A DNA stretch of 64,000 bases from Acidobacteriota bacterium (GTDB lineage: Bacteria > Acidobacteriota > Blastocatellia > Pyrinomonadales > Pyrinomonadaceae): assembly GCA_016713675.1 (NCBI GenBank), contig JADJOS010000005.1, forward strand, positions 144,018 to 208,017, in the 5' to 3' direction. Both the position numbers and the translations under genes were made by a program. The notes below the pieces were generated by a model, which worked only from the letters and a program-made list of their open reading frames with translations, had not been told where the DNA came from and did no database searches. Positions 12,658-62,716 of the stretch are shown here, piece by piece. Position 1 is the first letter of the stretch. Every line of letters begins with the position of its first letter.

Positions 12658-12939
12658 TCTTTACGTTGCTGGTCAATTTAAGATCTATCTGCTTTTTTCC
12701 GTGTTCGATAAGGGAACGGAATTCGTGGAACTTTGTACGTTCGACCGGCGAGAATCCGAAAAGCCCGCATTGATCGAACGAAGAGAAGTAAAAGCGAAAT
12801 GAGCGACCAGGTCTCTCTGGCGTGAGCAGCAGTATCGTACTTGGTTGTTCGCGAAGGTTTTAGTATATATAAGCAATTTTAGGTTTCGTAACCCTTGACC
12901 TAATGTTTGGCACCGGTAAGCAGTAACGGAGGAATTATT

Positions 12940-13752
12940 ATGCTGGATCAATTAGTTGAATCTAAAAGCAATTCAAGGGAAAACGCACGTAAGAGCCAGT
13001 TCTTTCTGGCGATTGGTGTTTTGGCGGTCATCACACTGCTTAGCAGCTGGACGTACAGCCTTTTTGGTAAGGATTACGCGATGGGTGGCGGCGATCTAGA
13101 ATTAACATCGCTGGTAGCCCCGCCGCCGCCGGACGAAGAGCCGCCGCCCAAACCGGAAAAGGAGCCTGAAAAGCAAAAGCAGCCTGACGTGGACGTCCGC
13201 AAGGAGCTGATCGCAAACATCAATCAAACGCCGCCAAAGGTTCCGGATAAGGTTGAAACGGCGAATACAAAATTTGTTGCAATGCGTGAGAACGTGAAGA
13301 CGGTTCAGGGCGACAGCAACGTGACGAACCCGGATGCTGTCGCGCGACGAGGCGAGGGAGCTGTCGTTGGGCAGCCTACGCTTGGCGGCGGAGGTAATGA
13401 CGCCGATTTTGACAACGATGACCCCGTTTCTAAACCGCCCGATGTCAAACCGCCGACACCTAAGCCGGCTCCGAAAACCGTTTCGGGCGGCGTATTGAAC
13501 GGTAAGGCAACGAGTTTGCCAAAGCCGGCTTATCCGGCTGCAGCAAAAGCGGTTCGAGCGTCTGGAGCGGTGAGCGTACAGGTCCTGATCAGTGAAACCG
13601 GCAGCGTGATCTCGGCCTCGGCCGTTAGCGGTCATCCGCTGCTGAGGGCCGCGGCAGCCAGCGCAGCTCGAGGGGCACGCTTTAGTCCGACATTATTGTC
13701 GGGACAGCCCGTCAAGGTTTCGGGCGTTATCACTTACAATTTCGTTCCATAA
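12940..13752 (+). CDS. tonB: energy transducer TonB
   Basis: The ATG at 12940 is preceded by ggagg at a 7-nt spacing. It has an N-terminal TM anchor, a Pro/Glu/Lys-rich spacer (PPPPDEEPPPKPEKEPEKQKQP) and a TonB C-terminal domain (LPKPAYPAAAKAVRASGAVSVQVLI...). Confidence 0.85.
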   Translation: MLDQLVESKSNSRENARKSQFFLAIGVLAVITLLSSWTYSLFGKDYAMGGGDLELTSLVAPPPPDEEPPPKPEKEPEKQKQPDVDVRKELIANINQTPPKVPDKVETANTKFVAMRENVKTVQGDSNVTNPDAVARRGEGAVVGQPTLGGGGNDADFDNDDPVSKPPDVKPPTPKPAPKTVSGGVLNGKATSLPKPAYPAAAKAVRASGAVSVQVLISETGSVISASAVSGHPLLRAAAASAARGARFSPTLLSGQPVKVSGVITYNFVP

Positions 13753-13768
13753 GCGGACGACCTTAACG

Positions 13769-13795
13769 GAAGGGAACGGTTGAGCCGTTCCCTTC
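13769..13795 (+). terminator. perfect 11-bp hairpin after tonB (no U-tract)
   Basis: gaagggaacgg (13769-13779) pairs with ccgttcccttc (13785-13795). The downstream sequence is not T-rich, so it may be an attenuator or stabiliser rather than a full terminator. Confidence 0.4.
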
Positions 13796-13852
13796 GATAA
13801 AAAGTTTACGCAATTATCAGATTAAGTTTTCGATTTCTTTGGAGGAAAAATC

Positions 13853-14602
13853 ATGACATTTCTTGGCAGCCTGGTCGCATCAGACATCTCGGGCTTGTTT
13901 CTAATGCTTACCGGCGAGGGCGTTTCGTTCGGTATTTACGATATCGCAAAGAGCCTTACAATTCCCGGCTGGGGCGTTATCATCACTCTGCTGTTTCAGT
14001 CGGTCTACATGATCGCGGTCGGTATCGAACGCTGGCTTACATACAGCAAAGCGAAGGCTCAATCCCGTCAGTATGCACCTAAAGTCGCACAGGCACTTAA
14101 GAACAGCAACATTGACGAGGCCATCAACATCGGCGACAAGCACAAAGATTCACATCTCGCGATGGTCGTTTCGTCGGGTTTGAAAGAATTCGCTGCTCAT
14201 CAGGGCAACACGGATATTTCGGCTGATGAAATGGAAGCTTCGAAGCGTGCTCTTGAGCGAGCGATCGCTGTTAAGACCGCCGAACTCAAACGCGGCCTCT
14301 CGGGACTCGCAACTGTCGGTTCGACCGCTCCGTTCGTCGGACTGTTCGGTACGGTCGTCGGTATCATCGGTGCTTTCCAGGCTCTTAAAACCAACGAATC
14401 AGCCGGTATCGGTGCGGTTGGTGGTGCTATCGCCGAAGCTCTCGTCGCTACCGCTTTTGGTATCCTCGTGGCAATTCCGGCCGTTTGGCTCTTCAACTAC
14501 TTCACAAGCAAGGTAACGAGCTTTGGTGTGGAAATGGAGAACTCGGCTTCGGAACTGGTTGACTACTTTATTAAACAGCGTGCAAAGTCACTACGCGGCT
14601 AA
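13853..14602 (+). CDS. exbB: MotA/TolQ/ExbB proton-channel protein
   Basis: It has three TM segments and the conserved LATVGSTAPFVGLFGTVVGI...AIAEAL.ATAFG motif. Confidence 0.9.
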   Translation: MTFLGSLVASDISGLFLMLTGEGVSFGIYDIAKSLTIPGWGVIITLLFQSVYMIAVGIERWLTYSKAKAQSRQYAPKVAQALKNSNIDEAINIGDKHKDSHLAMVVSSGLKEFAAHQGNTDISADEMEASKRALERAIAVKTAELKRGLSGLATVGSTAPFVGLFGTVVGIIGAFQALKTNESAGIGAVGGAIAEALVATAFGILVAIPAVWLFNYFTSKVTSFGVEMENSASELVDYFIKQRAKSLRG

Positions 14603-14644
14603 TTGCTTCGTAGTGATCTTTGACAGTTCAGGAGATTTACTGCC

Positions 14645-15088
14645 ATGGGTGCACAAATAGGTGGATCATCCGAATACAATTCGGATATTAACGTTACTCC
14701 GATGGTTGACGTGATGTTGGTGCTGCTGATCATTTTCATGATCGTGACACCGCTGCTCCAACAGGGAGTTTCAGTCAACCTTCCGCGTGACATGATCAGC
14801 CCCGATGAAGATGCGGATATTGCCAAAGATACATCAGTGATCGTCGCGATCCCTGATAACAGCAATTTCTACATCGGTAAGGAAATTTATCCTCTCGATC
14901 AACTCGGTGAAGTGATCAAACGGCGTATGGAAGGAAAAACGCCTGAAAAACGGATCGTTTACATCAAGAGCGGTATCGAGGTCGAATACGGTCAGGTCGT
15001 CAAGGCGATAGATACTATTCGTAAGCAGGATATTGATAAGATCGGGCTGGTCGCTGACAAGAAAAAGGGCGGCGAAGCGCCGAAATAG
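14645..15088 (+). CDS. exbD: biopolymer transport protein ExbD/TolR
   Basis: INVTPMVDVMLVLLIIFM N-terminal TM motif and a periplasmic ExbD fold. Confidence 0.9.
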   Translation: MGAQIGGSSEYNSDINVTPMVDVMLVLLIIFMIVTPLLQQGVSVNLPRDMISPDEDADIAKDTSVIVAIPDNSNFYIGKEIYPLDQLGEVIKRRMEGKTPEKRIVYIKSGIEVEYGQVVKAIDTIRKQDIDKIGLVADKKKGGEAPK

Positions 15089-15130
15089 GCTGTTGTGTTG
15101 TTTTAGCAGCGACTTAGGAAGGATACAGAT

Positions 15131-15607
15131 ATGGGAATGTCAACAGGCGGCGTTGGCGGCGATGCCAAGCCGACCATCAATGTTACACCGTTGATCGATG
15201 TGCTTCTCGTGCTCATCATCATCTTTATGGTCATCACGCCTCTCAAGCCGAGCCGGTTTGAGGCAAAGGTTCCGGCTGAGCCGAAGAATGAGCCGCAGGT
15301 AAACGTTAAGCCCAATCCGCTAACGCTTGTCGTGTCGATCAGTCGTGAAGATAAGAAGATATTGCTCAATAATGAGCCTTTCGGTGATGTTACGGATACG
15401 GAAAAATTATCCGAACGTCTTCGTTCTATCTTTAAGGAACGCGAAACCAACGGTGTGTTGCGGGAAGGAACCAATGAGGTCGAAAAGACATTGTTCATCA
15501 AATCGCCCAAGACCGTTCGTTATGGTGATGTTGTCAAGGTGATCGATGCGGTCAAATCAGTCGGTGCTTCGCCGATCGGTTTGCAGATCGACGATTTAAC
15601 AGATTAA
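15131..15607 (+). CDS. exbD: biopolymer transport protein ExbD/TolR (second paralog)
   Basis: INVTPLIDVLLVLIIIFM motif; tandem with the first exbD. Confidence 0.9.
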   Translation: MGMSTGGVGGDAKPTINVTPLIDVLLVLIIIFMVITPLKPSRFEAKVPAEPKNEPQVNVKPNPLTLVVSISREDKKILLNNEPFGDVTDTEKLSERLRSIFKERETNGVLREGTNEVEKTLFIKSPKTVRYGDVVKVIDAVKSVGASPIGLQIDDLTD

Positions 15608-23718: not shown

Positions 23719-24042
23719 GTGAAAGTTCTTTGTTTCAGCTTTATCGTCTATCTCCTGCTCCTCATGACACAGCCGTGTCAGGACTTGCTTGCAATGGAGA
23801 ATGATTGCACTGATAGTAGGACAGAGATCACTAGCATTCAGCCAACAAGTGACAGGCACTCTGACGATTGCTCCCCATTCTGTCTTTGTCCATGCTGTAG
23901 CCTGTCGGTTGCTGATCATTCTTTCCGGACATTTGCTTCAAGCGATGTTGAAAGTAAAGCGATTCCAACGAACGTCATCGAGTATGCAAACCCATACTCA
24001 AAAGCCCACCAAAACTCCATTTGGCAGCCGCCAAAAGCTTAA
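23719..24042 (+). CDS. Cys-rich exported mini-protein (DUF6660-like, from memory)
   Basis: GTG start 2 nt after the preceding stop. It has an N-terminal hydrophobic segment ending in PCQD, a central DDCSPFCLCPCCS motif and a C-terminal WQPPKA. Proteins of this architecture sit next to TonB-dependent receptors in Bacteroidetes, as far as I recall. Confidence 0.5.
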   Translation: MKVLCFSFIVYLLLLMTQPCQDLLAMENDCTDSRTEITSIQPTSDRHSDDCSPFCLCPCCSLSVADHSFRTFASSDVESKAIPTNVIEYANPYSKAHQNSIWQPPKA

Positions 24043-24116
24043 CTGCCCCGCACCACTGCGCCCGCTTTTCGTCACCATTTTGTAAAGGTGACATGGTTCG
24101 AGTTAGAGCTAAGGTT

Positions 24117-26297
24117 ATGGAGTTTATGAGAAGAGCAATTATATTTCTCGTCGTCGTTCTGACAGCCAACACCGTGTTGGCGCAAAGCGCAACTACGGTC
24201 ACGATCATTGTAAAGAACAGAGATACAAAGGCGAATATCGCCGAAGCGACAGTTCGCCTAAAGGGCACCGAGGTGTCTGCGGTCACTGATATAAACGGTA
24301 GGGCGGAGCTTAGGATCGCAGCTGATGGTGACCAAACTATCGAGATATTCTCACCCGGATTCGAAACGTTGGAACTCAAACTTACTTACCCGCTGACCGA
24401 TCCGTCCGAACGAGTCGCATTCCTTGAGATCAACAATGAAGTTGGCGAGGTGACGATAACCTCGACTCGAACCGGCCGCGAGATCGAATCGGAACCTTCA
24501 CGTGTCGAGGCGATCGACGAAGAAGAGATAGATGAAAAGATCAATATGCGGCCCGCGAATGTCTCGATGGTCTTACATGAGAGCACTGGCATTCAGGTGC
24601 AGCAGACATCGGCAACATCGAATACACAAAGTGTTCGGATCCAGGGCCTTTATGGCCGTTATACTCAGATCTTAAAGGACGGTTTTCCGGCATTTGGCGG
24701 CTTTTCCGGCAGTCTTAGCATTCTTGAAATACCACCTCTCGATCTTAAACAGGTCGAGGTTGTAAAGGGTCCTGCCGCGACTCTGTTCGGCGGTGACGCG
24801 ATCGCCGGAGTCGTCAATTTTGTCACGAAAGACCCCACGGACGAGCCTGTGACTACGCTGATCCTGAATCAAACGTCGGCATACGGCACTGACTTTTCGG
24901 TTTTCAATTCACGCAAATACTCGCGGTTCGGCTATACGCTCCACGGCTCTACAAATTATCAACGACCGTATGACGTTGATGACGACGATTTTACGGAGTT
25001 GCCGCAAACTACGGCTTTCGGTTTCCGCCCAAAGTTGCTCTTCTATATCGATCAGAAAACTACTTTAACGGTTGGCAACTCGATGTCCTATCAAAACCGC
25101 AAGGGGGGGGACACTTTTGTGCTAAATGGCAACGCTACGGCGTTTCATCAGTATTTCGAACAAAATCGATCCTTTCGAAACATCACGTCGTTCAATCTCA
25201 ACCGCGAATTCGCAACCGGCGGACGATTGTTTGCAAAACAAAGTCTTGCGTTCTTCGATCGCGAACTGACGACGCAAAGTTACGTATTCAAGGGAAGCCA
25301 GTTCAATTCATTTACTGATATATCTTATGCACAGGCATTTGGTAGGCATGCAGTCGTTTTTGGCGGAAGTGTTGTCTACGATCAGTTTCGGGAAAAGACG
25401 ACGAACGGTATCGATCCTCGCGATGAAACTCGATCGACTGTCGGAGTATTTGTTCAAGACACAGTCGACCTAACCGACAGATTTTCGCTCGAAGCCGGGT
25501 TTCGACTCGACTATTCCAAGGATCATGGCGTTTTCGCTTTACCCCGAGTCTCACTACTCTATCGGTTCAGCGAACATTTGACCACTCGCGTCGGATTCGG
25601 CCTAGGATACAAGACGCCAACAATGTTCACTGAAGACGCCGAGACACTTTTGTTCAGAAATGTGTCACCTGTTGACGAACTTCTAAAAGCAGAACGAAGC
25701 AAAGGCGGGACGTTTGATGTTAATTACAAGGATAGTATCGGCGAGAACTTTACCTATTCCCTCAACCAGATGTTCTTTTACACAGAAATAACCGATCCGA
25801 TCATCCTGAGGCCCGATACCAATAACATCTTTCGGTTTAGCAACGCCCCGTCACTTGTGATCAGCAAAGGTTTTGAGACGAACGCACGGGTCGGCTACTC
25901 GATCACGAAGCTCTTCTTCGGCTATACTTTCACCGACGCGAAGGCCGGATTCCTCACTGGTGACCACACACTGACTTTGTTGCCGAGACATAGGGTCAAC
26001 TCATCGCTCGTTTTCGAAAAACACGAGAGCTTTAAGGCCGGAGTTGAGTTTTACTATGGAAGCCGGCAGACACTCGATGACCGTTCGCTGACGCGATCAA
26101 CTGCTGAGTTAGGATTGTTTGGCGAGAAGAGCTTCGGCAAGTTCAGTCTGTTTATCAATGCCGAGAACCTGACCGATGTCCGTCAGGGACGTTATGGTCG
26201 GGTTGTTCTCGGAACGCATCAGAATCCGACATTCGCTGAACTCTATACACATACCGAGGGTCGTATTTTTAACGGCGGAATTAAGATAAGATTGTAA
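24117..26297 (+). CDS. TonB-dependent outer-membrane receptor with an N-terminal carboxypeptidase-regulatory-like domain
   Basis: The signal peptide starts from the ATG at 24117 (MEFMRRAIIFLVVVLTANTVLAQ). It has a CarboxypepD_reg-like beta-sandwich, a plug (IQGLYGRYTQILKDG.P) and a barrel ending in an aromatic-rich terminal strand (GGIKIRL). Confidence 0.9.
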   Translation: MEFMRRAIIFLVVVLTANTVLAQSATTVTIIVKNRDTKANIAEATVRLKGTEVSAVTDINGRAELRIAADGDQTIEIFSPGFETLELKLTYPLTDPSERVAFLEINNEVGEVTITSTRTGREIESEPSRVEAIDEEEIDEKINMRPANVSMVLHESTGIQVQQTSATSNTQSVRIQGLYGRYTQILKDGFPAFGGFSGSLSILEIPPLDLKQVEVVKGPAATLFGGDAIAGVVNFVTKDPTDEPVTTLILNQTSAYGTDFSVFNSRKYSRFGYTLHGSTNYQRPYDVDDDDFTELPQTTAFGFRPKLLFYIDQKTTLTVGNSMSYQNRKGGDTFVLNGNATAFHQYFEQNRSFRNITSFNLNREFATGGRLFAKQSLAFFDRELTTQSYVFKGSQFNSFTDISYAQAFGRHAVVFGGSVVYDQFREKTTNGIDPRDETRSTVGVFVQDTVDLTDRFSLEAGFRLDYSKDHGVFALPRVSLLYRFSEHLTTRVGFGLGYKTPTMFTEDAETLLFRNVSPVDELLKAERSKGGTFDVNYKDSIGENFTYSLNQMFFYTEITDPIILRPDTNNIFRFSNAPSLVISKGFETNARVGYSITKLFFGYTFTDAKAGFLTGDHTLTLLPRHRVNSSLVFEKHESFKAGVEFYYGSRQTLDDRSLTRSTAELGLFGEKSFGKFSLFINAENLTDVRQGRYGRVVLGTHQNPTFAELYTHTEGRIFNGGIKIRL

Positions 26298-30073: not shown

Positions 30074-30264
30074 TTTCGACGTGTGTGAACTAGTGACCCG
30101 AACAACGTTCTTAAGTGTGAAATATATCGTTGTTTAACACATTCTGTCAATCGAATCATTTCGGTTTTATCACGAGAGAGTGGCTTGATTATTGACTACT
30201 CGCGTGTTACGTTTAGGCTTTGTCACGAAATCCATCTGCTAGTTAGAAAAGTGAGGAATTATCA

Positions 30265-30660
30265 ATGAGTTTAGAAGCGCTCGGAATGATCGAGACCAAG
30301 GGCTTTATCGGTGGTGTCGAAGCTGCTGATGCTATGGTCAAGGCAGCCAATGTACAGCTTGTCGGCAAAGAGTATATTGGGGCCGGATACATGACCATCT
30401 TTGTTCGCGGAGACGTCGGAGCCGTCAAAGCAGCTACTGATGCAGGAGCAGCAGCAGCTCGCCGTGTTGGCGAACTTATCAGTGTCCACGTCATACCGCG
30501 TCCGCACGGTGAGGTCGAACGAATCTTGCCGAAAGGCGGGACTGTCGGCGTGAGTCCTGACGAAAAAGCTCTGCAGGGCGGCGAAAGACAGCTTAGCTCC
30601 GGCGGTGCCGGATCATCGTCAGCTATCTCTAACGAGGGCACCAAGTCCAAGACAAAATAG
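30265..30660 (+). CDS. bacterial microcompartment shell protein, BMC-H (PF00936 type) with a ~40-aa Gly/Ser-rich C-terminal tail
   Basis: The protein reads [31 protein letters not shown]...[33 protein letters not shown]. The SD gagga lies upstream. Confidence 0.9.
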
Positions 30661-30752
30661 CGTAAGATCGACTCGGGGATAACGGGACGCTGAAATGCAG
30701 GGACCCAAGTTCCTGCTGACTCACGTCTTGGCCTCTCCCGATTTTTTAGCGT

Positions 30753-32455
30753 ATGAGTGACAAGGATCTGGCAGCCCAACAGGAAGCTCGTGATGCGGTC
30801 TCTGCCGCCCACGAGGCGTTCGCCATTGTTGCCGGATTTGATCAAAAAAGATCGATGAGATCTGTGCGGCAATGTCAGCGGCGGCGTTGTCCGATGCGGC
30901 CCGTCTGGGGCAGATGGCTCGCGAAGAGACCGGATTTGGAAAACCTGAAGACAAGCGGGAAAAGAACAGGTTTGCCGCTGAGGATGTCTGGAATTATTTT
31001 AAGACCCTCAAGACTGTTGGGGTCGTCCGGGAAACCGAAAGTATTGTCGAAATAGCGAGTCCCCGCGGTGTCGTGGCCGCTATCATTCCTTCCACAAATC
31101 CGACCTCGACTGCAATATTCAAGATCATAATTGCGATCAAGTCACGCAATACCATTGTCTTGTCACCTCACCCTTCAGCTGCTAAATGTATTGCCGAAAC
31201 GGCTCGAATCATGCTTGACGCCGGTATCAAGCACGGCCTCCCGGCGGATTCTGTCAAATGCCTGAAACTCACAACGATCGAGGGCACCGAAGCCCTGATG
31301 AAGCACAAACAGACAGCGGTGATCCTGGCTACAGGCGGTACCGGCTTGGTTCGAGCGGCATATTCTTCGGGCAAGCCAGCGTTTGGAGTCGGACCGGGGA
31401 ATGTTCCGGTTTACATTGACAAGTCAGCTGACGTTGCAAAGGCCGTCGCAGATATTCTGACAAGTACTTGTTTTGATAACGGTACGATCTGTGCGTCTGA
31501 GCAGTCTGTCGTAGCCGACTCCGCGGTCGCTGATGAGGTGCGATCACAGTTTCGTGCTCAGGGCGGGCATTTTCTAAACGCGAACGATGCTGAGTCGGTC
31601 GGTAAGATCCTTTTGACGCCGCAACGCACACTTAATCCGGCCATTGTAGGGAAATCAGCCGCGTTTATCGCCGATTTGGCCGGTGTTGTGATCCCTGAAG
31701 GCACTAGATGTCTGTTGGCTGATTGCTTGGGTGTCGGACGGGATCATCCATGGTCGATCGAAAAATTATCGCCCACGCTTGCGTTCTTTGTCGTCGATGG
31801 GGTCGAAGCGGGAGCCGCGCGCTGTTTGGAGATCTTGCAGTTTGGAGGCATGGGCCATACGTCGGGAATGCACACCCAAGATCGGTCGGCGGCGATAAGG
31901 TTCGGCGAAAAAATGCCGACCGCAAGGGTCATAATAAATTCGCCGACAACCCATGGCGCGATCGGATTTTCGACGGGTCTTTCACCGTCGATGACGCTCG
32001 GCTGCGGTTCTTGGGGCGGAAATGTAACGTCGGATAACGTATCGCCTATTCATTTGATCGACATCAAACGGGTAGCGTTCGAAACGAAGCCCGTGAATAA
32101 AAGGTCGCCGGCAGTTTCGGCGGTAAAGACCGATGCCGCTGTTACTCAACCTTTCATCAAACCGAGATCGGTCACCCGCGAAGATATTGCTGCACTAGTT
32201 GACAGCTTCTTAAGCAAACATGTTAAACGGGAGGCTCCGGCGCCGGTTGCTGAACCGGTCAAACAAACGATCGTGCATCACACTTACCCGCTTCCTGAGC
32301 CGAAAAAGCCGCCCGCACCGCTGGATTTTGTCAGCGAGGATGACGTTCGCAGAGCATTGGATAAAGGTCAGCGGATATTTATAACAAAGAAAGCGATCCT
32401 GACGCCTTCGGCTCGAGACCTCGGCACTGAGAAGGATATTTTTACGATCGTCTAG
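30753..32455 (+). CDS. CoA-acylating aldehyde dehydrogenase (EutE/PduP-like), interrupted by a frame change in an A6 run (30844-30849), with a ~115-aa C-terminal extension
   Basis: The N-terminal 32 codons are in the frame of 30753 and the remainder in the frame of 30848/30872. The junction reads GFDQK|[14 protein letters not shown] once one A is added. The catalytic Cys is in [12 protein letters not shown]. Confidence 0.85.
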
Positions 32456-32461
32456 TTCTGT

Positions 32462-32839
32462 ATGGCTGAAGCGGTTCTCGAAAAAGCGATTTGTGCTGCA
32501 TGTGGCGTTGACGTCCGTGAAGGCACCCAGTTTTGTTATAATTGCGGAAAGCCGGTTCCGAATGGACTCGAATCAACCGTGGTCCCGGCGGAACTGAGCG
32601 GTAATGCCGATCCCGGATCGAACATCGAAAATGACGACAAGATCGAAACAAACGATAAAGCAGAGAAGCTAGCAGCCGCGGCGACCGAACGTAAAAGGTC
32701 GCGCGTGGGCCAGCGAAAGCCAAAAAAGGTCATTTGGGAAGAGCCCGGTGCGGCATCGAACAGGATGTTCATTCTAGTCTGTTTACTTATCACCGTGATC
32801 GCAGGTGCTTTGGTCTTCCTGATGGTTTTCATGAAGTAA
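32462..32839 (+). CDS. zinc-ribbon protein with a C-terminal TM helix
   Basis: It has CAACG...(12 aa)...CYNCG, an acidic/basic linker and a C-terminal hydrophobic helix (MFILVCLLITVIAGALVFLMVFM). It starts 7 nt after the AldDH stop. Confidence 0.55.
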   Translation: MAEAVLEKAICAACGVDVREGTQFCYNCGKPVPNGLESTVVPAELSGNADPGSNIENDDKIETNDKAEKLAAAATERKRSRVGQRKPKKVIWEEPGAASNRMFILVCLLITVIAGALVFLMVFMK

Positions 32840-32849
32840 CGGTGAACGA

Positions 32850-32951
32850 ATGGTCGCAGCAGCTGGTATTTTCTTTATCGCCTTGTTCGTCGGTTTAGCC
32901 TTGCTTTCGGTCGCGATATTCATCATTTGGCGTTTGAAACGGCGGAAATGA
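32850..32951 (+). CDS. candidate 33-codon single-TM micro-ORF (not in the ORF track)
   Basis: My hand translation gives MVAAAGIFFIALFVGLALLSVAIFIIWRLKRRK*. It fills the gap between the zinc-ribbon gene and the second BMC-H gene. No strong SD is present. Confidence 0.3.
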   Translation: MVAAAGIFFIALFVGLALLSVAIFIIWRLKRRK

Positions 32952-32969
32952 TCTTAAAAGGGTAATTTT

Positions 32970-33287
32970 ATGCAAGCTTTAGGGATGGTTGAGTGTTTTG
33001 GACTTGTCGCGATGATCGAGGCGGCGGATGCGATGGTCAAGGCGGCAAATGTTACACTCGTCGGCTACGAAAAGATCGACGCCGGGTTGGTCACTGCGAT
33101 CGTTCGCGGAGAGGTCGGAGCAGTCAAGGCCGCGGTGGATGCCGGCGCTGCTGCGGCTCGTCGTGTCGGTACGGTAACGGCCGTCCATGTCATTCCGCGA
33201 CCGCATAGTGAGGTCGACGAAGGGATTCCGGTGTTGGTGACCGGCGAAACGAACCGCAAAAAGATCTCCGGTTCCGTGCCCGAATAG
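32970..33287 (+). CDS. bacterial microcompartment shell protein, BMC-H (PF00936 type)
   Basis: The protein reads [31 protein letters not shown]...[33 protein letters not shown]. Confidence 0.9.
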
Positions 33288-33351: not shown

Positions 33352-34455
33352 CTATGGTTTCGTCGGCGTAGTTGACGGCTTTGTTTGATTCGAACCATCC
33401 GCTTCAGCCGTCCTGCCCGTACGTGTGATCGGAATACGCTTCTGTTTGTTTGGGCCGTCTTCAACGACGACCTTAATGTTGCGGTATGTGCCGTCCTTTT
33501 TGTCGTTCGAGGGTACGTAGCCTATCGAAAACTGGGTACGCAGTTCACTGGCAATGTCCTTTGCGACTGCCGGCAATTCGCTCGGACCCGATGGGAAATA
33601 CGCCTTTCCTCCTGTCTCTGTTGCCATTCTTTCAAGAAAAGCTCTCGCTTTTCCCTGCGGGCTCTTGCCGATAAAGCCGCCCTCTTTGCTCAGGTCGCCA
33701 ACAAACCCGACAACATAGATCTGAGCTTCTGATTCACGAAGCAGCTCAAAAAGCTGCTTCTCGTTGTAATAGCTGTCGCGGTCTTCTCCATCGGTTACCA
33801 GAACGATCGCACGTCTTTTACGGTCCGCGGCACTTTGTGACTTCTCGTATTCCTCGACATTTTCCACCGCGAGATAAACGGCATCGATTATTGCGGTCTG
33901 GCCGCCCTCGATATAGAGATTATCAAGCGAATCGATGAGGTCAGCTTTGTTGGTCGTGAAAGGCTGTTCAATACTGATCTTTTCTCGCCCGACGAATCTA
34001 ATGATCGCTGTCTCATCCAGCGGGCCGTTTGTGTTTACCAATATCTTTCCGGCCTCGATCACCTTTTCAAGCTGCGGACGAAGCGAACCGGAATTATCGA
34101 TCACAAGTGCGTAATTTGTCGGGACTTCCGAGCGCGAAAAATAATCGATCTGCTGGAGGACGCCATCTTCGTAGATCTTAAAATCACCCTGCTTTACATC
34201 ATTTACCGGACGGCTATTGCGGTCGATCACCCTGATGTTGAGGTTAACAAGTTCAGTGTCGACCTTTTCGATGGTGTCGTCGTTCAGCACATTCGGTGTC
34301 GGTTTCGGCGTTGGCGAAGGTGTTGGTACAGGTGTAGGAGTCGCATTAACCGCTTTCGTTGAGGCTATCTGAGCATTCGACGCAAAAAAAGACTGGAATA
34401 AGATCGCCACCGCAAAGGTTGTTCCGGATAAAAAGAGAAAAAGGTTTCGTTTCAT
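33352..34455 (-). CDS. secreted von Willebrand factor A domain protein (Acidobacterial VWFA-related type)
   Basis: It has a signal peptide from the ATG at 34455 (MKRNLFLFLSGTTFAVAILF), a Pro/Thr linker, an N-terminal beta domain and a VWA with the MIDAS-like motif VIDNSGS. It is a paralog of the upstream gene. Confidence 0.85.
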   Translation of the reverse strand: MKRNLFLFLSGTTFAVAILFQSFFASNAQIASTKAVNATPTPVPTPSPTPKPTPNVLNDDTIEKVDTELVNLNIRVIDRNSRPVNDVKQGDFKIYEDGVLQQIDYFSRSEVPTNYALVIDNSGSLRPQLEKVIEAGKILVNTNGPLDETAIIRFVGREKISIEQPFTTNKADLIDSLDNLYIEGGQTAIIDAVYLAVENVEEYEKSQSAADRKRRAIVLVTDGEDRDSYYNEKQLFELLRESEAQIYVVGFVGDLSKEGGFIGKSPQGKARAFLERMATETGGKAYFPSGPSELPAVAKDIASELRTQFSIGYVPSNDKKDGTYRNIKVVVEDGPNKQKRIPITRTGRTAEADGSNQTKPSTTPTKP

Positions 34456-34468
34456 GGTTGCGTCGTTT

Positions 34469-35461
34469 TTATCGATAACTGACATTTGGAGTTGCGTAGT
34501 AGCCTTCGCGACTGCGAACCGTTAGACGCGGTAAACCCCGCGGAGGTTTGACCTTAACTTTAACTTTCCGCCACTTTCCATCCGGTGCAAAGTCCTTCGG
34601 CGTATATCCAATGGAGTATTGATGCCTCAGTTCGAGGGCGATCCGCTCGAATATCTCGTCCATTTCGACGTCGGTGTCAGGATAGAACGACTTGCCGCCA
34701 GTCACCGAGCTGATCTCATCCAGAAAAGACTGCCCTTGCATTCCGGGCCCACTCATTGTGTCGCCTCGGCTCATTATCCCGACCGAATACGTGACGACAT
34801 CAGCTTCTTTCATCAATCGACGAACCTCGCCAAAATTATACCGCGATGCGTTGTCTTGTCCATCACTGATTATTAAAAGTGCCCGCTTTTGATGAGAGCC
34901 GCGAGTGACTCGCTCGATCCCAAGATAAACGGCATCGTAAAGTGCCGTGTTGTTCTTTGGTTGAACAAGCGTTAATTTTTGCAGGACAGCATCGCCGTCA
35001 CGGGTTCGATCGAGCAGCAACTGGGCCCGGCTGTTGAAAGCGATCAGGAAATACTCGTCCGACGGGTGACTTGTTAGGATGAATCTGGACAACGCTTTCC
35101 GAGCTTTGTTGATCTTGTCACCGCTCATCGATCCGGAAACGTCAAACAGGATCCCTACGGAAACCGGGGCATCACTATCACTGAAAAATGTAATTTCCTG
35201 AGGCTCGCCATTGTCCGCTATTTGGAAGGCGTTTTTGTTCAGTCCCGAAACATATCTTCCGTAAAGGTCGGTAACCGTAAGCGTTAGCGTGACGAGATCG
35301 GTCTTCACCTTGACCGGAGCATTGTCGTCATCTGCAAGCGGCGGAGTCGGTGTCGGTTCCTGAGCAAACATTGTGGCGAACACGATGGCAAACGTAAACG
35401 CAATATATACCGCTCGAGCAACCAAGGGCCGTGCCAATACCACCAACGCATTTAAGGCCAT
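34469..35461 (-). CDS. secreted von Willebrand factor A domain protein (paralog)
   Basis: The ATG at 35461 is preceded by aggaga. It has a signal/anchor sequence (MALNALVVLARPLVARAVYIAFTFAIVFA) and a VWA with FDVSGSMSG. The C-terminus (KVKVKVKPPRGL.LTVRSREGYYA) parallels that of the other copy. Confidence 0.85.
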   Translation of the reverse strand: MALNALVVLARPLVARAVYIAFTFAIVFATMFAQEPTPTPPLADDDNAPVKVKTDLVTLTLTVTDLYGRYVSGLNKNAFQIADNGEPQEITFFSDSDAPVSVGILFDVSGSMSGDKINKARKALSRFILTSHPSDEYFLIAFNSRAQLLLDRTRDGDAVLQKLTLVQPKNNTALYDAVYLGIERVTRGSHQKRALLIISDGQDNASRYNFGEVRRLMKEADVVTYSVGIMSRGDTMSGPGMQGQSFLDEISSVTGGKSFYPDTDVEMDEIFERIALELRHQYSIGYTPKDFAPDGKWRKVKVKVKPPRGLPRLTVRSREGYYATPNVSYR

Positions 35462-35715
35462 AAACTCTCCTAAGGGTAACCTACATAGTAGGTAATGAAC
35501 GGAAACCGTGCAAGACAAAAAATGAGATGTTTGCAGCACGATATAGGTTGTTCGATCGACATCGAAATTCGGCAAAGATTCTTAGTGTGCAACAATTATC
35601 GCCGGCCTGCGTGATATAATCTGAAGCATCGCAAGGTCTATATTGTCGATTCGAGATCTTTCGCAAATCGGATTCCGATCTCGCAACATTGTGGCTCTTT
35701 AAAACGTCCTAATTT

Positions 35716-36954
35716 ATGGCTGAATTCATTTGTCGACTCGGCACCCCATCGGGTGAGATCGTAACAAAAGTAGTCGAAGCGGCTGCAGCTGCCGATGCCC
35801 GTTTGAGGCTTGAGGCCGATGGATTTCGCGTTTTTGCCATCTCGTCTGCCGAAGAAGGGCTTACGTCAGTACTTTCGCTTGGCGGCTCGACCAAGGGCAA
35901 GGTCAAGTCAAGCGATTTCCTGTTATTTAATCAACAACTTTCAGCATTGCTTCGGGCCGGAATTCCGGTTTTGCAAGCGATCGGATTGTTAAAAACGCGC
36001 TCAGGTTCAGCAAATCTGCGTGCAGTTCTGGTAGATGTCGAGGAAAAGATCAAGAACGGCATTCCGCTTTCTGATGCTTTTGAATCGCAGGGTATCTTTC
36101 CGCGTATCTACACTGCCTCGATCCTGGCCGGCGAAAAGAGCGGTGCGCTGGACGATGTGCTGGAACGTTTTGTTACATATCTGAAACGAAGCGTAGGCAT
36201 ATCGCGAAAGCTTCGCGGAGCTTTGGCATATCCCGCATTCCTGCTTTTGGCCGCCACCTTGATGGTCGCATTCTTGACCTTCTACATCGTGCCGCGAATG
36301 TCCGATCTTTTCAAAGGGTTAAGTGCCAATCGAGCTTTGCCGACTCTAACTGTCTGGGTGCTTGCCTTTTCCAACGCCATCATCGGAAATATTTGGTGGC
36401 TGCTGCCCTTAGTAATAATCATAACTGTCGCCTTGGTCTTATGGCTGCGCACGGCAAATGGTAAGCTGATGCTGCACAAATTGCTGCTCCGCATACCGGT
36501 CGCAGGCCAGCTGATCCGAAATATGGCGGCGTCATCATTGGCCCGTTCATTGTCAACACTTTTGTCCGGCGGTATCACGGTCCCCGAATCGTGGGACATT
36601 GCCTCGCAATCCATAAACAATCTGGAACTCCGACGCCGAAGCCAAGGCGTTCTGCCGATGATCCGTGAAGGACGCGGTTTTACCGAAGCTCTTGAGCAGG
36701 CCAATTGGCTTCCTGAACTTGCATTGGACATGATCGGCATTGGTGAAAAATCCGGCAGCTTGCGGGAGATGCTCGACGAGGTCGCAACTTTCTATGATGC
36801 CGAGGCGGAAGTACGTCTCGAACAGCTAACAACACTTCTGGAACCGGCGATCTTACTGTTCATGGCCGGAATCGTTGTTATTATTTTGCTTGCTATCTAC
36901 TTGCCGATCATCCAGACCATCTCGTCAGGGCCGTTCGGCGGAAGAAAGCAGTAA
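35716..36954 (+). CDS. type II secretion / type IV pilus platform protein (GspF/PilC family)
   Basis: It has two T2SSF repeats (FNQQLSALLRAGIPVLQAI..., LARSLSTLLSGGITVPESW) and three TM segments. Confidence 0.9.
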   Translation: MAEFICRLGTPSGEIVTKVVEAAAAADARLRLEADGFRVFAISSAEEGLTSVLSLGGSTKGKVKSSDFLLFNQQLSALLRAGIPVLQAIGLLKTRSGSANLRAVLVDVEEKIKNGIPLSDAFESQGIFPRIYTASILAGEKSGALDDVLERFVTYLKRSVGISRKLRGALAYPAFLLLAATLMVAFLTFYIVPRMSDLFKGLSANRALPTLTVWVLAFSNAIIGNIWWLLPLVIIITVALVLWLRTANGKLMLHKLLLRIPVAGQLIRNMAASSLARSLSTLLSGGITVPESWDIASQSINNLELRRRSQGVLPMIREGRGFTEALEQANWLPELALDMIGIGEKSGSLREMLDEVATFYDAEAEVRLEQLTTLLEPAILLFMAGIVVIILLAIYLPIIQTISSGPFGGRKQ

Positions 36955-36967
36955 CGGTATAGAATTT

Positions 36968-38659
36968 ATGAGTGTGGAAACTGAAGAAGTTGCAGTAAGC
37001 AACCCATCGGCGCCAAAGATCGAATTGTCTGATTTTTTGGAAAATGAACCGCCGGAAATGATCGATGCCAAGATCCTTGCGCGTCGATACCGTATGCCTT
37101 TCATCGACTTGCTGCCGCCCGACGGGCCATCGCCGGTCGATCACGACGAACTAGCTCGGCTGCCCGTCGATCTGATGCTCCGAAACCAATTCGTCCCCTT
37201 ACAACGCGAAGGTAACAACCTGCATGCCGCGATGGCGGATCCGACGAATCTGGAACGGCTCGATGAGCTCGAAAACGTTCTCAATATGCGGATCGTTCCA
37301 TATGTTGCGACCGCCGGTTCGATCGATGTTGTCCTTCGAAAGGGCGATTCGACACAGCGAGTACTGCAGGAGGCAGCATCCGGATTTAAGATCTCGCTCG
37401 TCAAGGAAACCGATCAGGGCGAAGAGGTTCTCGACCTCGACAGGCTCGCGTCGGACAGCGATATGTCGCCGATCATTAAGCTCGTCGACACGATCCTATA
37501 CAATGCGATGGAATCGCGAGCTTCTGACATACACATCGAAACGCGCGAGCGTGACGTTCAGGTCAAGTTCCGCATCGATGGAGCACTGTACGCCAAAGTC
37601 GACCCGATTGACATCGCCTATCACCAACAGCTCATTTCGCGTATCAAGGTCATGTCCGAGCTCGACATCGCCGAACGCCGCATCCCGCAGGACGGCCGTT
37701 TTCGTGTGCGTTACAAGGGCCGCACGGTTGATTTTCGTGTATCGATCATGCCGACCGTTTTCGGTGAGGACGCCGTTATCCGTATTCTCGACAAAGAGCA
37801 GATCAACGAGGAATTTAAGAATCTCGATCTCAATGTAGTTGGATTCGATCCTGACGATGTTGCTCGATTTCGGCTTTATATCAAAGAGCCATACGGAATG
37901 GTGCTCGTCACCGGGCCGACGGGTTCGGGTAAAACGACCACGCTCTATGCTGCACTCAACGAGATCCGTAATGAAGAAGACAAGATCATCACCATCGAAG
38001 ATCCTGTCGAGTATCAGCTTCACGGCATTGTCCAAATTCCCGTTAACGAGAAAAAGGGCCTGACGTTTGCCCGCGGACTGCGTTCGATCCTACGTCACGA
38101 TCCTGACAAGATCATGGTCGGTGAGATCCGTGACGAAGAGACCGCTCAGATCGCCATCCAGTCGGCATTGACCGGCCACCTCGTATTCACGACGGTTCAC
38201 GCCAACAACGTTATCGACGTCATCGGCCGATTCCTGAATATGGGCGTCGAGCCGTACAACTTTGTTTCGTCGCTCAACTGCGTGCTCGCACAACGCCTGG
38301 TTCGATTGCTTTGTCCGACATGTAAACGAGCCTATACGCCGACGCCCGAGGAACTTGCAGAATCGGGCCTGCATCAGAAGGATATTAGTGACAAAGTGTT
38401 TTACAAGAGCGTCGGGTGCGATGCCTGCAACCACACCGGCTATCGCGGCCGAACGGCAATTCACGAACTTCTCGACATGTCCGACACGATCCGCGAAATG
38501 ATCATCGAACGCCGCCCCGGCTCAGAGATCCGACGCCAAGCGGAAAAGGAAGGCCTCTCATCACTTCGCGAATCGGCTGTAAAGAAGGTGTTTCTGGGTA
38601 TGACGACTCTATATGAGATCAATCGAGTGACATTTGTCGAAGAGATCGGAAAGGTTTAG
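36968..38659 (+). CDS. type II secretion / type IV pilus assembly ATPase (GspE/PilB family)
   Basis: It has a T2SSE_N-like N-terminus, Walker A GPTGSGKTT, an Asp box, Walker B IMVGEIRD, a His box and the tetracysteine motif CPTC...CDAC. The ATG at 36968 avoids overlap with the upstream gene. Confidence 0.9.
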   Translation: MSVETEEVAVSNPSAPKIELSDFLENEPPEMIDAKILARRYRMPFIDLLPPDGPSPVDHDELARLPVDLMLRNQFVPLQREGNNLHAAMADPTNLERLDELENVLNMRIVPYVATAGSIDVVLRKGDSTQRVLQEAASGFKISLVKETDQGEEVLDLDRLASDSDMSPIIKLVDTILYNAMESRASDIHIETRERDVQVKFRIDGALYAKVDPIDIAYHQQLISRIKVMSELDIAERRIPQDGRFRVRYKGRTVDFRVSIMPTVFGEDAVIRILDKEQINEEFKNLDLNVVGFDPDDVARFRLYIKEPYGMVLVTGPTGSGKTTTLYAALNEIRNEEDKIITIEDPVEYQLHGIVQIPVNEKKGLTFARGLRSILRHDPDKIMVGEIRDEETAQIAIQSALTGHLVFTTVHANNVIDVIGRFLNMGVEPYNFVSSLNCVLAQRLVRLLCPTCKRAYTPTPEELAESGLHQKDISDKVFYKSVGCDACNHTGYRGRTAIHELLDMSDTIREMIIERRPGSEIRRQAEKEGLSSLRESAVKKVFLGMTTLYEINRVTFVEEIGKV

Positions 38660-54173: not shown

Positions 54174-55844
54174 ATGAAATTATCTACGCCCTGGCAGAAG
54201 CAAAACCCAACGAGCAGACTGCAAAAGCTGACCGATGAATACCGCGTACTCGAGGCGCGCCTCAAACTCGGCGGCGGCACCGAAAAGATCGAAAAGATAC
54301 ACAAACAAGGCAAACTGACCGCTCGCGAACGGATCGACTTGCTCCTTGACCCCGACTCGTTCCAACAAGAGATCGGCTTACTCGTCGCTTATGATCAATA
54401 CGACGGTCAGGCTCCCGCAGCCGCAGTCGTTACCGTCGTCGGCAAGATCCACGGCCGCGAATGTGTGGTAATCGCAAATGACGCGACGATCAAAGCCGGA
54501 GCATGGTATCCCGAGACTATCAAAAAGATCCTTCGGGCTCAGGAGATCGCGATGCGCAACCGCGTGCCGATCATCTATCTGGTCGATAGTGCCGGCGTCA
54601 ACCTGCCGTACCAGGGCGGTGTCTTTCCGGGGCAATACGGTGCAGCACGCATCTTTTACTACAATTCGATCATGCGGAAATACCTCAAGGTCCCGCAGAT
54701 CTCGGCCGTCATGGGAATGTGCGTCGCCGGTGGGGCATATTTGCCCGCCTTAAGCGATGTGATCCTTATGGTCGAAGGCACCAGCTTTATGGGCCTAGGC
54801 GGTGCCAATCTCGTCAAAGGAGCAACGGGCCAATCCATCGACAACGAAACCCTCGGCGGAGCCATGACCCACAACGCCATCTCCGGCGTCGCCCACTTCC
54901 GGACCAAAGATGACAAAGCATGTTTGGAGAAAATAAGGGAACTCGTCAGTGAACTGCCGGCAAAAGAACCAACGCGCGTGTCGGTCGTTCCGAACTCCCC
55001 TCCTTACAAAGAAGGGGTGGCAGCCGCTTCGGCTGACGGGGCGGTTCTCTCCGACGAGCATTCGCTCTACAACCTGCTTCCCGAAGACCACCGAGCACCG
55101 TATGAAATGCACGACGTCCTCAACACCTTTCTCGACGAAGGCGGCATCGACGAATTCCAAGCCGACTTTGCCAAAGAGATGATCTGCGGAACTGCCCGCA
55201 TCGGCGGTATTCTCGTCGGTGTGATCGCAAACAGCCGCGGCATGTCGAAAGGGAAGCCGGGAACTCCGCCGCGATTCGGCGGGATCGTCTATACCGAATC
55301 TGCCGAGAAGACCGCGTATTTCATCGAGAACTGCGACCGCCATTCTACGCCGTTGCTCTTTGTACAGGACGTCTCCGGCTTTATGGTCGGTGCTGAGGCT
55401 GAACACAGCGGCATCATCCGGGCCGGTGCCCGTTTTGTCGAAGCAATGGCGACCGCCGCCGTGCCTAAGATCGTCCTGACGATAAACCACGCCAGCGGTG
55501 CAGGTTATTACGCGATGGCCGGACAGGGCTTCGACCCCGACTTCATCTTCTCGCTCCCGACGGGCCGCATGGGCGTCATGGAAGGCGATTCCGCCGCCCA
55601 GGCTATCTACGGGACCCAGATCGAAAAACTCAAAAAAGAGGGTAAGGAACCGCCGCCCGAAATGCTCGAAGAAATGCAAAAGGTCCGCGAAACCTATGAC
55701 CGCGAACTTGACGCCAAACATGCCGCGGCCAGAGGTTTGGTCGATGCAATTGTCACCCCCGAGGACCTTCGGGAGTCGTTGATGTTGGCTTTGCAGACAT
55801 GTTTGAATACTAACCAACCCCACATTGGAGCCTTCGTCCTTTAG
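54174..55844 (+). CDS. acyl-CoA carboxylase carboxyltransferase (beta) subunit, methylcrotonyl-/propionyl-CoA carboxylase type, carrying a ~19-aa repeat-encoded insertion
   Basis: It has two crotonase-fold CT domains (ANDATIKAGAWYPETIKK..RAQEIA; GIVYTESAEKTAYFIENCDRHSTPLLFVQDVSGFMVG). The inter-domain linker contains [19 protein letters not shown], which is encoded by the repeat element. Confidence 0.9.
   Translation: MKLSTPWQKQNPTSRLQKLTDEYRVLEARLKLGGGTEKIEKIHKQGKLTARERIDLLLDPDSFQQEIGLLVAYDQYDGQAPAAAVVTVVGKIHGRECVVIANDATIKAGAWYPETIKKILRAQEIAMRNRVPIIYLVDSAGVNLPYQGGVFPGQYGAARIFYYNSIMRKYLKVPQISAVMGMCVAGGAYLPALSDVILMVEGTSFMGLGGANLVKGATGQSIDNETLGGAMTHNAISGVAHFRTKDDKACLEKIRELVSELPAKEPTRVSVVPNSPPYKEGVAAASADGAVLSDEHSLYNLLPEDHRAPYEMHDVLNTFLDEGGIDEFQADFAKEMICGTARIGGILVGVIANSRGMSKGKPGTPPRFGGIVYTESAEKTAYFIENCDRHSTPLLFVQDVSGFMVGAEAEHSGIIRAGARFVEAMATAAVPKIVLTINHASGAGYYAMAGQGFDPDFIFSLPTGRMGVMEGDSAAQAIYGTQIEKLKKEGKEPPPEMLEEMQKVRETYDRELDAKHAAARGLVDAIVTPEDLRESLMLALQTCLNTNQPHIGAFVL
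54996..55051 (+). repeat. nested-hairpin repeat element, copy 2 (inside the carboxyltransferase CDS, in frame)
   Basis: The sequence is tcccctccttacaaagaaggggtggcagccgcttcggctgacggggcggttctctc. It differs at only 3 positions from the reverse complement of copy 3. Confidence 0.85.
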
Positions 55845-55870
55845 AGTGACAGTGACCTGGAAGTACCAAT

Positions 55871-56581
55871 ATGCGAACTCCTAACTTCGTTTTTTGTTTA
55901 ACCTTATTCGTGTTCATTTACGGCAACGCCTATGCTCAGACTGTTCCCGCAGATTCGGAGCCCGTGATCAAAGGATCCACCAGCTACCAGCTTCCACGGT
56001 CAGCGATCGACGCGGGAATTGATGGAACCATTACTGTAGCGATACGAATTGACGAAAGCGGAAAGCCAAAGGCATTGGCTCTGATTTCCGGGCCCATGTG
56101 GCCGTGCGGTTCGACGCCGCAGGCCGCTCTGAATGACCTTTCCGCTACGCTGTCCGAGACGTTGATGAAGGTCGAATTCACACCTGCGGTAAAGAAGGGC
56201 AAGCCTTACGAGACGACGATCGGCCTGACATTCAAGCTAAAAAACCCAAATATCAAACCGGCAAAGGTCGAGCTCGACCAAATGACCGGCAAACCAAAGC
56301 CTGCGATGATCAATGCAGGTGTCGTTAACGGGAAGGCCGTATCACTCCCGAAACCGGCATATCCGCGCGAAGCAAGGATGAACCGCGACGGCGGTGCGGT
56401 CTCGATCCAGGTGGTGATCGATGAAAAAGGGAATGTTATCCGGGCCGGGGCCGTCAACGGGGCACCTTCGCTCCAATTTGCCTCACGAGATGCTGCCTGC
56501 GGTGCCAAATTCGAACCGACGCTCCTTCAAGGAAGCCCGATCATGGTCTCGGGCGTAATAACTTACAATTTCGTTCCATAA
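55871..56581 (+). CDS. periplasmic protein with two TonB C-terminal-like domains
   Basis: It has a signal peptide rather than a TM anchor and no Pro-rich spacer. The second domain (LPKPAYPREARMNRDGGAVSIQVVI...VSGVITYNFVP) ends identically to TonB at 12940-13752. Confidence 0.7.
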   Translation: MRTPNFVFCLTLFVFIYGNAYAQTVPADSEPVIKGSTSYQLPRSAIDAGIDGTITVAIRIDESGKPKALALISGPMWPCGSTPQAALNDLSATLSETLMKVEFTPAVKKGKPYETTIGLTFKLKNPNIKPAKVELDQMTGKPKPAMINAGVVNGKAVSLPKPAYPREARMNRDGGAVSIQVVIDEKGNVIRAGAVNGAPSLQFASRDAACGAKFEPTLLQGSPIMVSGVITYNFVP

Positions 56582-57462: not shown

Positions 57463-57480
57463 TTGTGGTACGTACCACAA
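57463..57480. promoter_or_regulatory. perfect 18-bp palindrome (operator-like)
   Basis: TTGTGGTAC|GTACCACAA was read directly from the sequence. An extra half-site gtaccacaa lies at 57368-57376, and a perfect TATAAT at 57561-57566 lies downstream, before the 57637 gene. Confidence 0.4.
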
Positions 57481-57636
57481 TTTGATCGATAGAGGTAAAA
57501 ATACACGATCGGTCATTTTACAGGGGGAAGATTTTTCTTCCGTTTTTCCTCTCGAAAAGCTATAATCACAAGTGCCATGTCGCTCGACATTGGTTTCCGA
57601 TCCTGCCTGCTGACGTTCCTGTCACACTTTTCGATA

Positions 57637-58606: not shown

Positions 58607-58635
58607 AACCTCTATTATTTAGTTCGCGGCAACAA

Positions 58636-59217: not shown

Positions 59218-59231
59218 CCGATAATGTCTTT

Positions 59232-59582: not shown

Positions 59583-59606
59583 AATACGCATACAATTGGA
59601 GACATA

Positions 59607-61840: not shown

Positions 61841-61890
61841 GATTTGGAACCGCGAAAGTCCACTAAAGCCCACGAAAAATAGATCGTGCC

Positions 61891-61930
61891 TTATTTAGTG
61901 TTATTTCGTGTAATTTAGTGGTTACTTCTT
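61891..61930 (+). repeat. copy A of the three-unit ATTTCGTG-type motif, abutting the start codon of the enoyl-CoA hydratase gene
   Basis: The sequence is ttatttagtg ttatttcgtg taatttagtg gttacttctt, followed by the ATG at 61931. Confidence 0.6.
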
Positions 61931-62689: not shown

Positions 62690-62716
62690 CGACGAAACAG
62701 TACCAATGTGAACGCA

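Follow-up and report, generated by a model that had tools for sequence, protein, structure and literature searches.

A probable satellite operon of the ACI-type bacterial microcompartment, with a conserved membrane-protein gene, in a Pyrinomonadaceae bacterium

What is the role of a bacterial microcompartment (BMC) locus that encodes two shell hexamers and one aldehyde dehydrogenase, and does it work alone or as part of a larger system? This question is raised by five open reading frames (ORFs) at 30265-33287 of a 64,000-nt stretch of DNA, hereafter the window, from a Pyrinomonadaceae bacterium (Acidobacteriota; GenBank assembly GCA_016713675.1, contig JADJOS010000005.1). Coordinates are positions in the window and refer to the + strand unless stated. 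The five ORFs lie on the + strand, separated by spacers of 92, 6, 10 and 18 nt. A first-pass annotation made from the sequence had called all five, and each is present where it was placed:

30265..30660, + strand: hexameric shell protein (BMC-H) 1, 131 aa; PF00936, 101.3 bits, E 2.9e-29
30753..32455, + strand: CoA-acylating aldehyde dehydrogenase (ALDH) of AdhE-N type, 567 aa when intact; TIGR02518, AdhE and PF00171 matches
32462..32839, + strand: predicted tail-anchored zinc-ribbon membrane protein, 125 aa; PF13240, 25.2 bits (cutoff 25; marginal)
32850..32951, + strand: 33-codon single-pass membrane micro-protein (iGIFFlAIFxG...RRKKR); protein-level conservation in 38 related loci
32970..33287, + strand: BMC-H 2, 105 aa; PF00936, 100.7 bits, E 4.4e-29

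The annotation had offered two readings of these genes: a satellite of a main locus elsewhere, or a stripped-down, minimal aldehyde-handling compartment. We find that the first agrees feature by feature with a published BMC type. The ACI type is restricted to Acidobacteria, for the most part those of subdivisions 4 and 6 (Sutter et al. 2021, Nat Commun 12:3809). Its main locus encodes a class II aldolase with a C-terminal encapsulation peptide (EP), a hydroxyacid dehydrogenase, a triplet of pentameric shell proteins (BMC-P), a BMC-H and unknown proteins (Sutter et al. 2021). Its aldehyde dehydrogenase is consistently placed in a satellite locus, sometimes, or 'occasionally', alongside a BMC-H, and bears, near its C-terminus, an EP and then a domain of unknown function of ~50 aa (Sutter et al. 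2021). The catalogue's BMC-P tree includes ACI main-locus pentamers from Blastocatellia metagenome-assembled genomes (MAGs) (Sutter et al. 2021).

The host studied here is a member of the Pyrinomonadaceae, Blastocatellia, subdivision 4. Its PF00171 aldehyde dehydrogenase stands apart from any BMC-P or aldolase gene, over 64 kb in the window and over ±10 kb in 80 related loci. An EP lies near the ALDH C-terminus and is followed by a terminal domain of ~45 aa, and BMC-H proteins with standard interface motifs are encoded beside the enzyme. These are the traits by which ACI satellites are described (Sutter et al. 2021; Supplementary Data 2). From the ALDH layout, the Blastocatellia host and the catalogue's Blastocatellia ACI pentamers, we therefore filed the locus as an ACI satellite; it is highly likely that 30265-33287 is the ALDH-bearing satellite locus of an ACI-type BMC of this bacterium. 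By the catalogue's description, a main locus would lie elsewhere in the genome and the substrate would be an aldolase-derived aldehyde.

The window itself supplies none of the missing parts. Pfam searches of called genes on matching public contigs, together with direct Pfam scans of the remaining ORFs, found no PF03319 pentamer, PF06130 phosphotransacylase (PTAC), PF00596 aldolase or alcohol dehydrogenase in the 64 kb, in agreement with the annotation. Phmmer queries with EutN, CcmL and PduN had no match in the window or in any related locus retrieved; the EutN query agrees with the E. coli genome record. A canonical complete metabolosome locus, with pentamer, signature enzyme, PTAC and alcohol dehydrogenase, is absent from the window, whose remaining genes are housekeeping and envelope only.

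The same picture holds across relatives. A scan of one genome per species returned more than 534 ALDH relatives, and our counts rest on the best 80 of these, all from Pyrinomonadaceae/Blastocatellia MAGs at 67-85% identity; the best 120 database matches to the ALDH all share at least 72% identity with it. Contigs of Pyrinomonadaceae MAGs, GCA_016703135.1 for example, match the window at 99.4-99.9% identity. Essentially all 80 related loci keep the order BMC-H, ALDH, zinc-ribbon gene, micro-ORF (where present), BMC-H, with most deviations falling at contig ends, and none has a BMC-P within ±10 kb of the ALDH. Comparison with other systems places this arrangement further. The metabolosome of Planctomycetes and Verrucomicrobia (PVM) likewise pairs a class II aldolase, as aldehyde source, with an acylating aldehyde dehydrogenase, and the catalogue assigns the same aldolase family to the ACI main locus; the PVM type, however, keeps all genes, pentamers and PTAC included, in one locus, and its aldehyde dehydrogenase belongs to another clade. 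CcmK3/CcmK4 and HO-type satellites resemble the present locus in placing shell paralogues, with or without an enzyme, away from a main locus, but they are parts of carboxysomes or HO metabolosomes and, unlike this one, lack membrane-protein genes.

We next consider the enzyme at the centre of the operon. The annotation had called it an EutE/PduP-like CoA-acylating dehydrogenase; acylating it is, but its type is that of AdhE. The ALDH scores 536 bits against TIGR02518, 515 bits against AdhE and only 227 bits against PRK15398. It matches PDB entry 5j78 at 470 bits and AdhE structures at 380-404 bits, and shares 30% identity with E. coli EutE. With its first 40 residues left out of the query, the protein falls under the TIGR02518 equivalog cutoff (536.3 versus 620.1 bits), and on this score it is a relative of that family, with no substrate assignment implied. 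The catalytic motif, coded at 31469-31504 and kept in 81 sequences, is of the FDNGxICASEQ type with its catalytic cysteine. This motif is common to the AdhE N-domain and to stand-alone acetylating dehydrogenases (5j78, 3k9d, TIGR02518), which match residues 2-450 at 400-470 bits; the ALDH differs from them in an extra C-terminal extension of ~120 aa that comprises the EP, a linker and a small domain. Scores and motif together identify it as an enzyme of the AdhE N-domain type, not of the EutE/PduP type. The full layout, shared by the window protein and 81 aligned orthologues, runs from a catalytic core (to about residue 450) through an amphipathic segment and a variable, proline-rich linker to the 45-aa terminal domain. 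Two segments of the extension bear on encapsulation:

32177..32224, + strand: EP-like amphipathic helix of the ALDH, kept as 'Re.IAaiVD.FLs.k' and flanked by variable linkers in 81 ALDHs; helical character predicted
32321..32452, + strand: ALDH C-terminal domain of ~45 aa, with 13 invariant columns in 60 sequences; candidate shell-docking module

The terminal domain has a weak likeness to EutQ. An AlphaFold2 (AF2) model of the last 55 residues, built from the alignment, shows a small, confidently modelled beta-alpha-beta-alpha-beta fold with a mean predicted local distance difference test score (pLDDT) of 84. A Foldseek search of the PDB with this model gave nothing better than E 0.9, a PDB sequence search with the domain profile gave chance matches only, and Pfam offered only a sub-threshold match (E ~0.1) to the C-terminus of PF15953 (PDU_like). 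Aligned by hhalign with residues 5-38 of E. coli EutQ, the profile reached E 2.9e-4 at a probability of 40%, which is weak; 6 of 20000 shuffled EutQ sequences attained the same HMMER score. The two regions share the motif (I/V)(S/T)xxD(I/V)RxAxxxG ... I(I/L)TPxAR(D/E) and two predicted helices at matching positions, although the AF2 model of the ALDH domain also has beta strands, unlike EutQ H1-H2. Helices H1-H2 of Salmonella EutQ bind the EutL/EutM shell interface, and H3-H4 bind cargo EPs (PMC12487888). The likeness and this shell binding by H1-H2 suggest that the terminal domain may be a EutQ-like shell-docking module fused to cargo, a lead and not a result. EutQ, which acts as an adaptor of its own, has this region N-terminal to a cupin acetate kinase, whereas the ALDH would carry it as a direct fusion to cargo, behind the EP. 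A EutQ family alignment contained near-identical enterobacterial fragments only and did not sharpen the comparison. A search of representative proteins with the terminal domain gave 645 matches, of which the top 150 were mostly C-terminal fragments of AdhE-like ALDHs with a few apparent chimeras. Two of these precede the ALDH terminal domain with an unrelated N-terminal part, arylamine-N-acetyltransferase-like in P0269 (282 aa) and malonyl-CoA-ACP transacylase-like in P0175 (212 aa); they are probably assembly or gene-call chimeras but could represent genuine domain shuffling.

On this basis the operon would supply a CoA-acylating ALDH as cargo and two extra hexameric shell paralogues, and a main locus elsewhere would supply the BMC-P triplet for the vertices, a further BMC-H, the aldehyde-producing class II aldolase and the hydroxyacid dehydrogenase. 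The ALDH would be recruited by its amphipathic EP near the C-terminus, and its terminal domain, which resembles EutQ H1-H2, would probably help to dock it to the shell. Once inside, it would turn the aldolase-derived aldehyde into acyl-CoA and so keep the aldehyde from escaping, with cofactor recycling by a dehydrogenase encoded elsewhere.

By sequence the two small proteins are clearly BMC-H shell proteins, and they would be expected to assemble into hexamers and then sheets or shells. The annotation had set a match to PF00936 as a check on this call, and both proteins score far above the gathering cutoff of 24.5 bits. In BMC-H 1, which shares 62% identity with E. coli EutM, the BMC domain spans residues 5-80 and the pore loop reads IGAGY. 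The pore loop of BMC-H 2 is IDAGL and thus carries an aspartate. Alignment with E. coli EutM places the edge lysine K26 (D-A-M-V-K) and the I-P-R-P-H (PRPH) motif in both. Each protein ends in a C-terminal tail that is kept across species: 41 aa in BMC-H 1 (coded 30535-30657), Gly/Ser-rich and ending in KSKTK, and 18 aa in BMC-H 2 (coded 33231-33284). The exact BMC-H 2 sequence occurs in 5 public contigs. Every related locus that is complete has BMC-H 1 upstream of the ALDH. BMC-H 2 has been lost from three loci, one of them an Aridibacter chromosome, all of which have full downstream flanks and retain the zinc-ribbon gene:

L052:11732-13465: locus without BMC-H 2
L055:12361-14007: locus without BMC-H 2
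L084:11736-13480: locus without BMC-H 2

The five genes form a single operon. A scan of this interval found no terminator-like site on the + strand between them, and the signals at its borders are as follows:

30185..30213, + strand: candidate operon promoter, TTGATT-17 nt-TACGTT
30250-30258, + strand: Shine-Dalgarno-like AGTGAGGAA upstream of the BMC-H 1 ATG
33360..33378, + strand: terminator-like hairpin after BMC-H 2, with an 8-bp stem and, after it, a T-rich tail

An alignment of 76 upstream regions shows that the block 'gcttgatt...gcgtg.tacgTTT.Ggc' and an AGGAGGAa before the ATG are kept. A simple sigma-70 scan did not list the site at 30185..30213, and for this reason we infer the operon promoter and treat this -35/-10-like block upstream of BMC-H 1 as a candidate. 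The hairpin is weak evidence for a terminator because the number of such sites does not exceed shuffled expectation. An Rfam search returned nothing credible. On the - strand, a near-consensus sigma-70 promoter (TTGACA-18-TATATT, 11/12) lies at 30121-30150 and would serve the divergent rodZ-like gene. Its -35 and -10 hexamers are both kept in 76 species, so that the 190-nt intergenic region appears to hold two divergent promoters.

Between the ALDH and BMC-H 2 stands a gene that the annotation had described as a CxxC...CxxC zinc-ribbon protein with a terminal transmembrane (TM) helix, unfamiliar from characterised BMC loci. Both parts of that description hold: PF13240 is matched, if marginally, and the catalogue text makes no mention of such a gene. 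Three parts of the protein are recognisable:

32492-32548, + strand: zinc ribbon with two CxxC pairs
32654-32743, + strand: conserved basic helix
32765-32833, + strand: C-terminal TM helix

An acidic, disordered linker separates the ribbon from the basic helix. AF2 pLDDT is ~80 over the ribbon, below 50 over residues 37-60 and ~96 over the TM helix. The succession of N-terminal ribbon, linker, basic helix and C-terminal TM segment predicts a tail-anchored membrane protein. C11, C14, C25, C28, R77, R81 and W92 are invariant, and the zinc ribbon and basic helix show a clear pattern of purifying selection in the alignment. A homologue is found in all 80 related loci wherever the contig reaches the position; two CxxC pairs are present in 80/80 orthologues and the C-terminal TM helix in 76/80, the other four ORFs being cut by contig ends. 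Because the gene is kept in the three loci that lack BMC-H 2, it is a more constant partner of the ALDH than BMC-H 2 is. In two more distant ALDH lineages, whose contigs are short, the gene downstream of the ALDH is not a zinc-ribbon gene. The 33-codon TM micro-ORF that follows, also called by the annotation, is real by its conservation at the protein level, and is absent where the spacer between the zinc-ribbon gene and BMC-H 2 is too short (for example L029, L045 and L049). We propose that both this micro-protein and the zinc-ribbon protein serve as membrane accessories specific to the lineage.

How much weight such conservation can bear depends on the surroundings. The flanking genes, a rodZ-like gene and two acidobacterial VWA genes of family TIGR03436, are those the annotation had named, and Pfam and NCBIfam agree. 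The wider neighbourhood (rodZ-like gene, IMPDH, the two VWA genes and secretion genes) is syntenic family-wide, so kept adjacency alone says little about function. At least 14 species have an insertion between the ALDH and the zinc-ribbon gene, a small secreted VWA gene on the same strand (~215 aa, with a signal peptide and DNSGS...TDGxD). Examples, to which about ten more loci can be added, are:

L010:11820-12368: inserted VWA gene
L033:11715-12374: inserted VWA gene
L050:11721-12410: inserted VWA gene
L062:7007-7657: inserted VWA gene

A recurring link between VWA proteins and the operon is possible; it is confounded by the family-wide synteny.

The window copy of the ALDH gene is broken. 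The first-pass annotation missed this frameshift, as it did the AdhE type and the weak EutQ likeness of the terminal domain. The lesion is a short one:

30844..30849, + strand: A6 homopolymer with a 1-nt deletion, causing a frameshift after ALDH codon 32

It splits the ALDH into 30753-31055 (frame 3) and 30872-32455 (frame 2); the true start is 30753, not 30872. All three same-species contigs that read across the site have A7. An intact 567-aa ALDH is encoded in four same-species assemblies (GCA_016703135.1, GCA_017997075.1, GCA_049663025.1 and GCA_020054605.1). All 80 related species likewise have an unbroken gene, coding for 563-613 aa, as far as their contigs extend over it; 83 copies other than that of the window are intact. 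Over 9-20 kb compared with three same-species assemblies, the A-run deletion is the sole clean single-base indel; the comparison with L001 otherwise shows only paired alignment gaps, near 42.3 and 43.1 kb where the sequences diverge. Four further homopolymers of at least 7 bases occur in the compared region and 0/4 coincide with an indel, so pervasive homopolymer error is not apparent. Two explanations offer themselves for the deletion: an error in the assembly, or inactivation of the gene in this strain. Since every other copy carries the in-frame A7, we rejected programmed -1 frameshifting at this run.

With this evidence assembled, the readings of the locus can be weighed. A self-sufficient minimal compartment, in which two hexamers and the ALDH handle an aldehyde without a pentamer and without any main locus in the genome, is very improbable. 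It would explain why neither the 64 kb nor the ±10 kb around 80 related ALDH genes contains a BMC-P, signature enzyme, PTAC or alcohol dehydrogenase, and a main locus was not directly observed. Yet the ALDH layout and the host clade are exactly those of ACI satellites, and the genomes that hold such satellites also have a main locus with its BMC-P triplet. Established knowledge of metabolosomes gives no obvious use for an oxidising ALDH in a compartment with neither an aldehyde source nor cofactor recycling, and BMC-H 2 is dispensable in some species. The minimal compartment proposed by the annotation is without support and would stand apart from every BMC type in the catalogue. Several points nonetheless weigh against assignment to an ACI satellite. 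We infer the main locus from the catalogue, our own data covering the window and related ALDH loci; the ALDH was assigned to ACI by description, its placement in the ACI/MIC3 clade being a prediction; and the EutQ likeness has a low probability and no structural relative by Foldseek. The catalogue reports a BMC-H with the aldehyde dehydrogenase 'occasionally', whereas here two BMC-H genes flank it in nearly every species of the family. The zinc-ribbon protein inside the operon, often joined by the 33-aa membrane protein, is a further departure from the catalogue text, as is the frameshifted ALDH of the window copy. That broken frame also means that the locus may be non-functional in this strain. 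A real slipped-strand mutation from A7 to A6, leaving the ALDH inactivated or phase-variable and the satellite pseudogene-bearing and possibly decaying, is a serious contender that we rate somewhat below an even chance. The solitary nature of the indel, the unaffected longer homopolymers and a frame-3 ORF that continues for 100 codons argue for it. Set against these are the intact gene in the other same-species assemblies covering the site and in all 80 related species, the absence of decay in the genes downstream of the ALDH, and the fact that no assembly error is commoner than a homopolymer miscalled by a single base.

If the locus is taken as an ACI satellite, the place of its two membrane proteins has still to be judged. 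They may be envelope passengers unrelated to the microcompartment, carried in the operon through family-wide synteny like the VWA and secretion genes; to us this is close to an even bet. The whole neighbourhood, from the rodZ-like gene and IMPDH to the two VWA genes and the type II secretion system/type IV pilus (T2SS/T4P) genes, is conserved as a block, which makes conservation alone weak evidence; an unrelated secreted VWA gene has entered the same place in species after species; the two distant ALDH lineages have no zinc-ribbon gene downstream; and the catalogue does not list the protein (Sutter et al. 2021). On the other side, the zinc-ribbon gene has BMC genes on both sides of it, all on one strand, and its spacers measure 6 and 10 nt; it is kept in all related loci, those without BMC-H 2 among them, and its ribbon and basic helix evolve under clear purifying selection. 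A bolder proposal, that the zinc-ribbon protein acts with the micro-protein as a dedicated accessory tying the ACI microcompartment to the cytoplasmic membrane, we regard as unlikely. Under such tethering, the C-terminal tails that face outward on both satellite hexamers would be bound by the cytoplasmic zinc ribbon or by the basic helix, with a possible role in positioning, partitioning or coupling to a membrane transporter.

Several other features of the window were recorded. Just downstream of the operon, two larger TIGR03436 VWA genes lie in convergent orientation at 33352-35575, and directly past them, at 35716-38659, are genes for a GspF/PilC-type platform protein and a T2SS/T4P ATPase (MshEN + T2SSE), which are syntenic with the BMC operon in 57/81 loci. 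A DsbB/DsbA pair is immediately upstream of IMPDH. A TonB / ExbB / two ExbD cluster occupies 12907-15607, and a TonB-dependent receptor with a DUF6660 gene occupies 23719-26297. The genes at 54174-64000, encoding a carboxyl transferase (PF01039), two enoyl-CoA hydratases, an AtuA ferredoxin-like protein and AtuA, are likely a group for acyclic-terpene or leucine-type acyl-CoA catabolism, unrelated by position to the microcompartment genes.

The locus is thus very probably ordinary for the most part, an expected and already catalogued arrangement. What remains as new is the conserved tail-anchored zinc-ribbon protein with its micro-protein in the operon, the possible EutQ-like domain and the frameshift, and none of these changes the basic classification. 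The A-run in the ALDH gene can knock out the enzyme. A membrane tether, if true, would have no described precedent as a membrane anchor among bacterial microcompartments. ACI microcompartments occur in Acidobacteria that are abundant in soil and wastewater, and any added detail on them helps the design of experiments. Three details added here are testable: the constant presence of the zinc-ribbon membrane protein in the ALDH satellite operon of the Pyrinomonadaceae, the possible EutQ-like docking role of the terminal domain, and the loss of the enzyme through the A-run.

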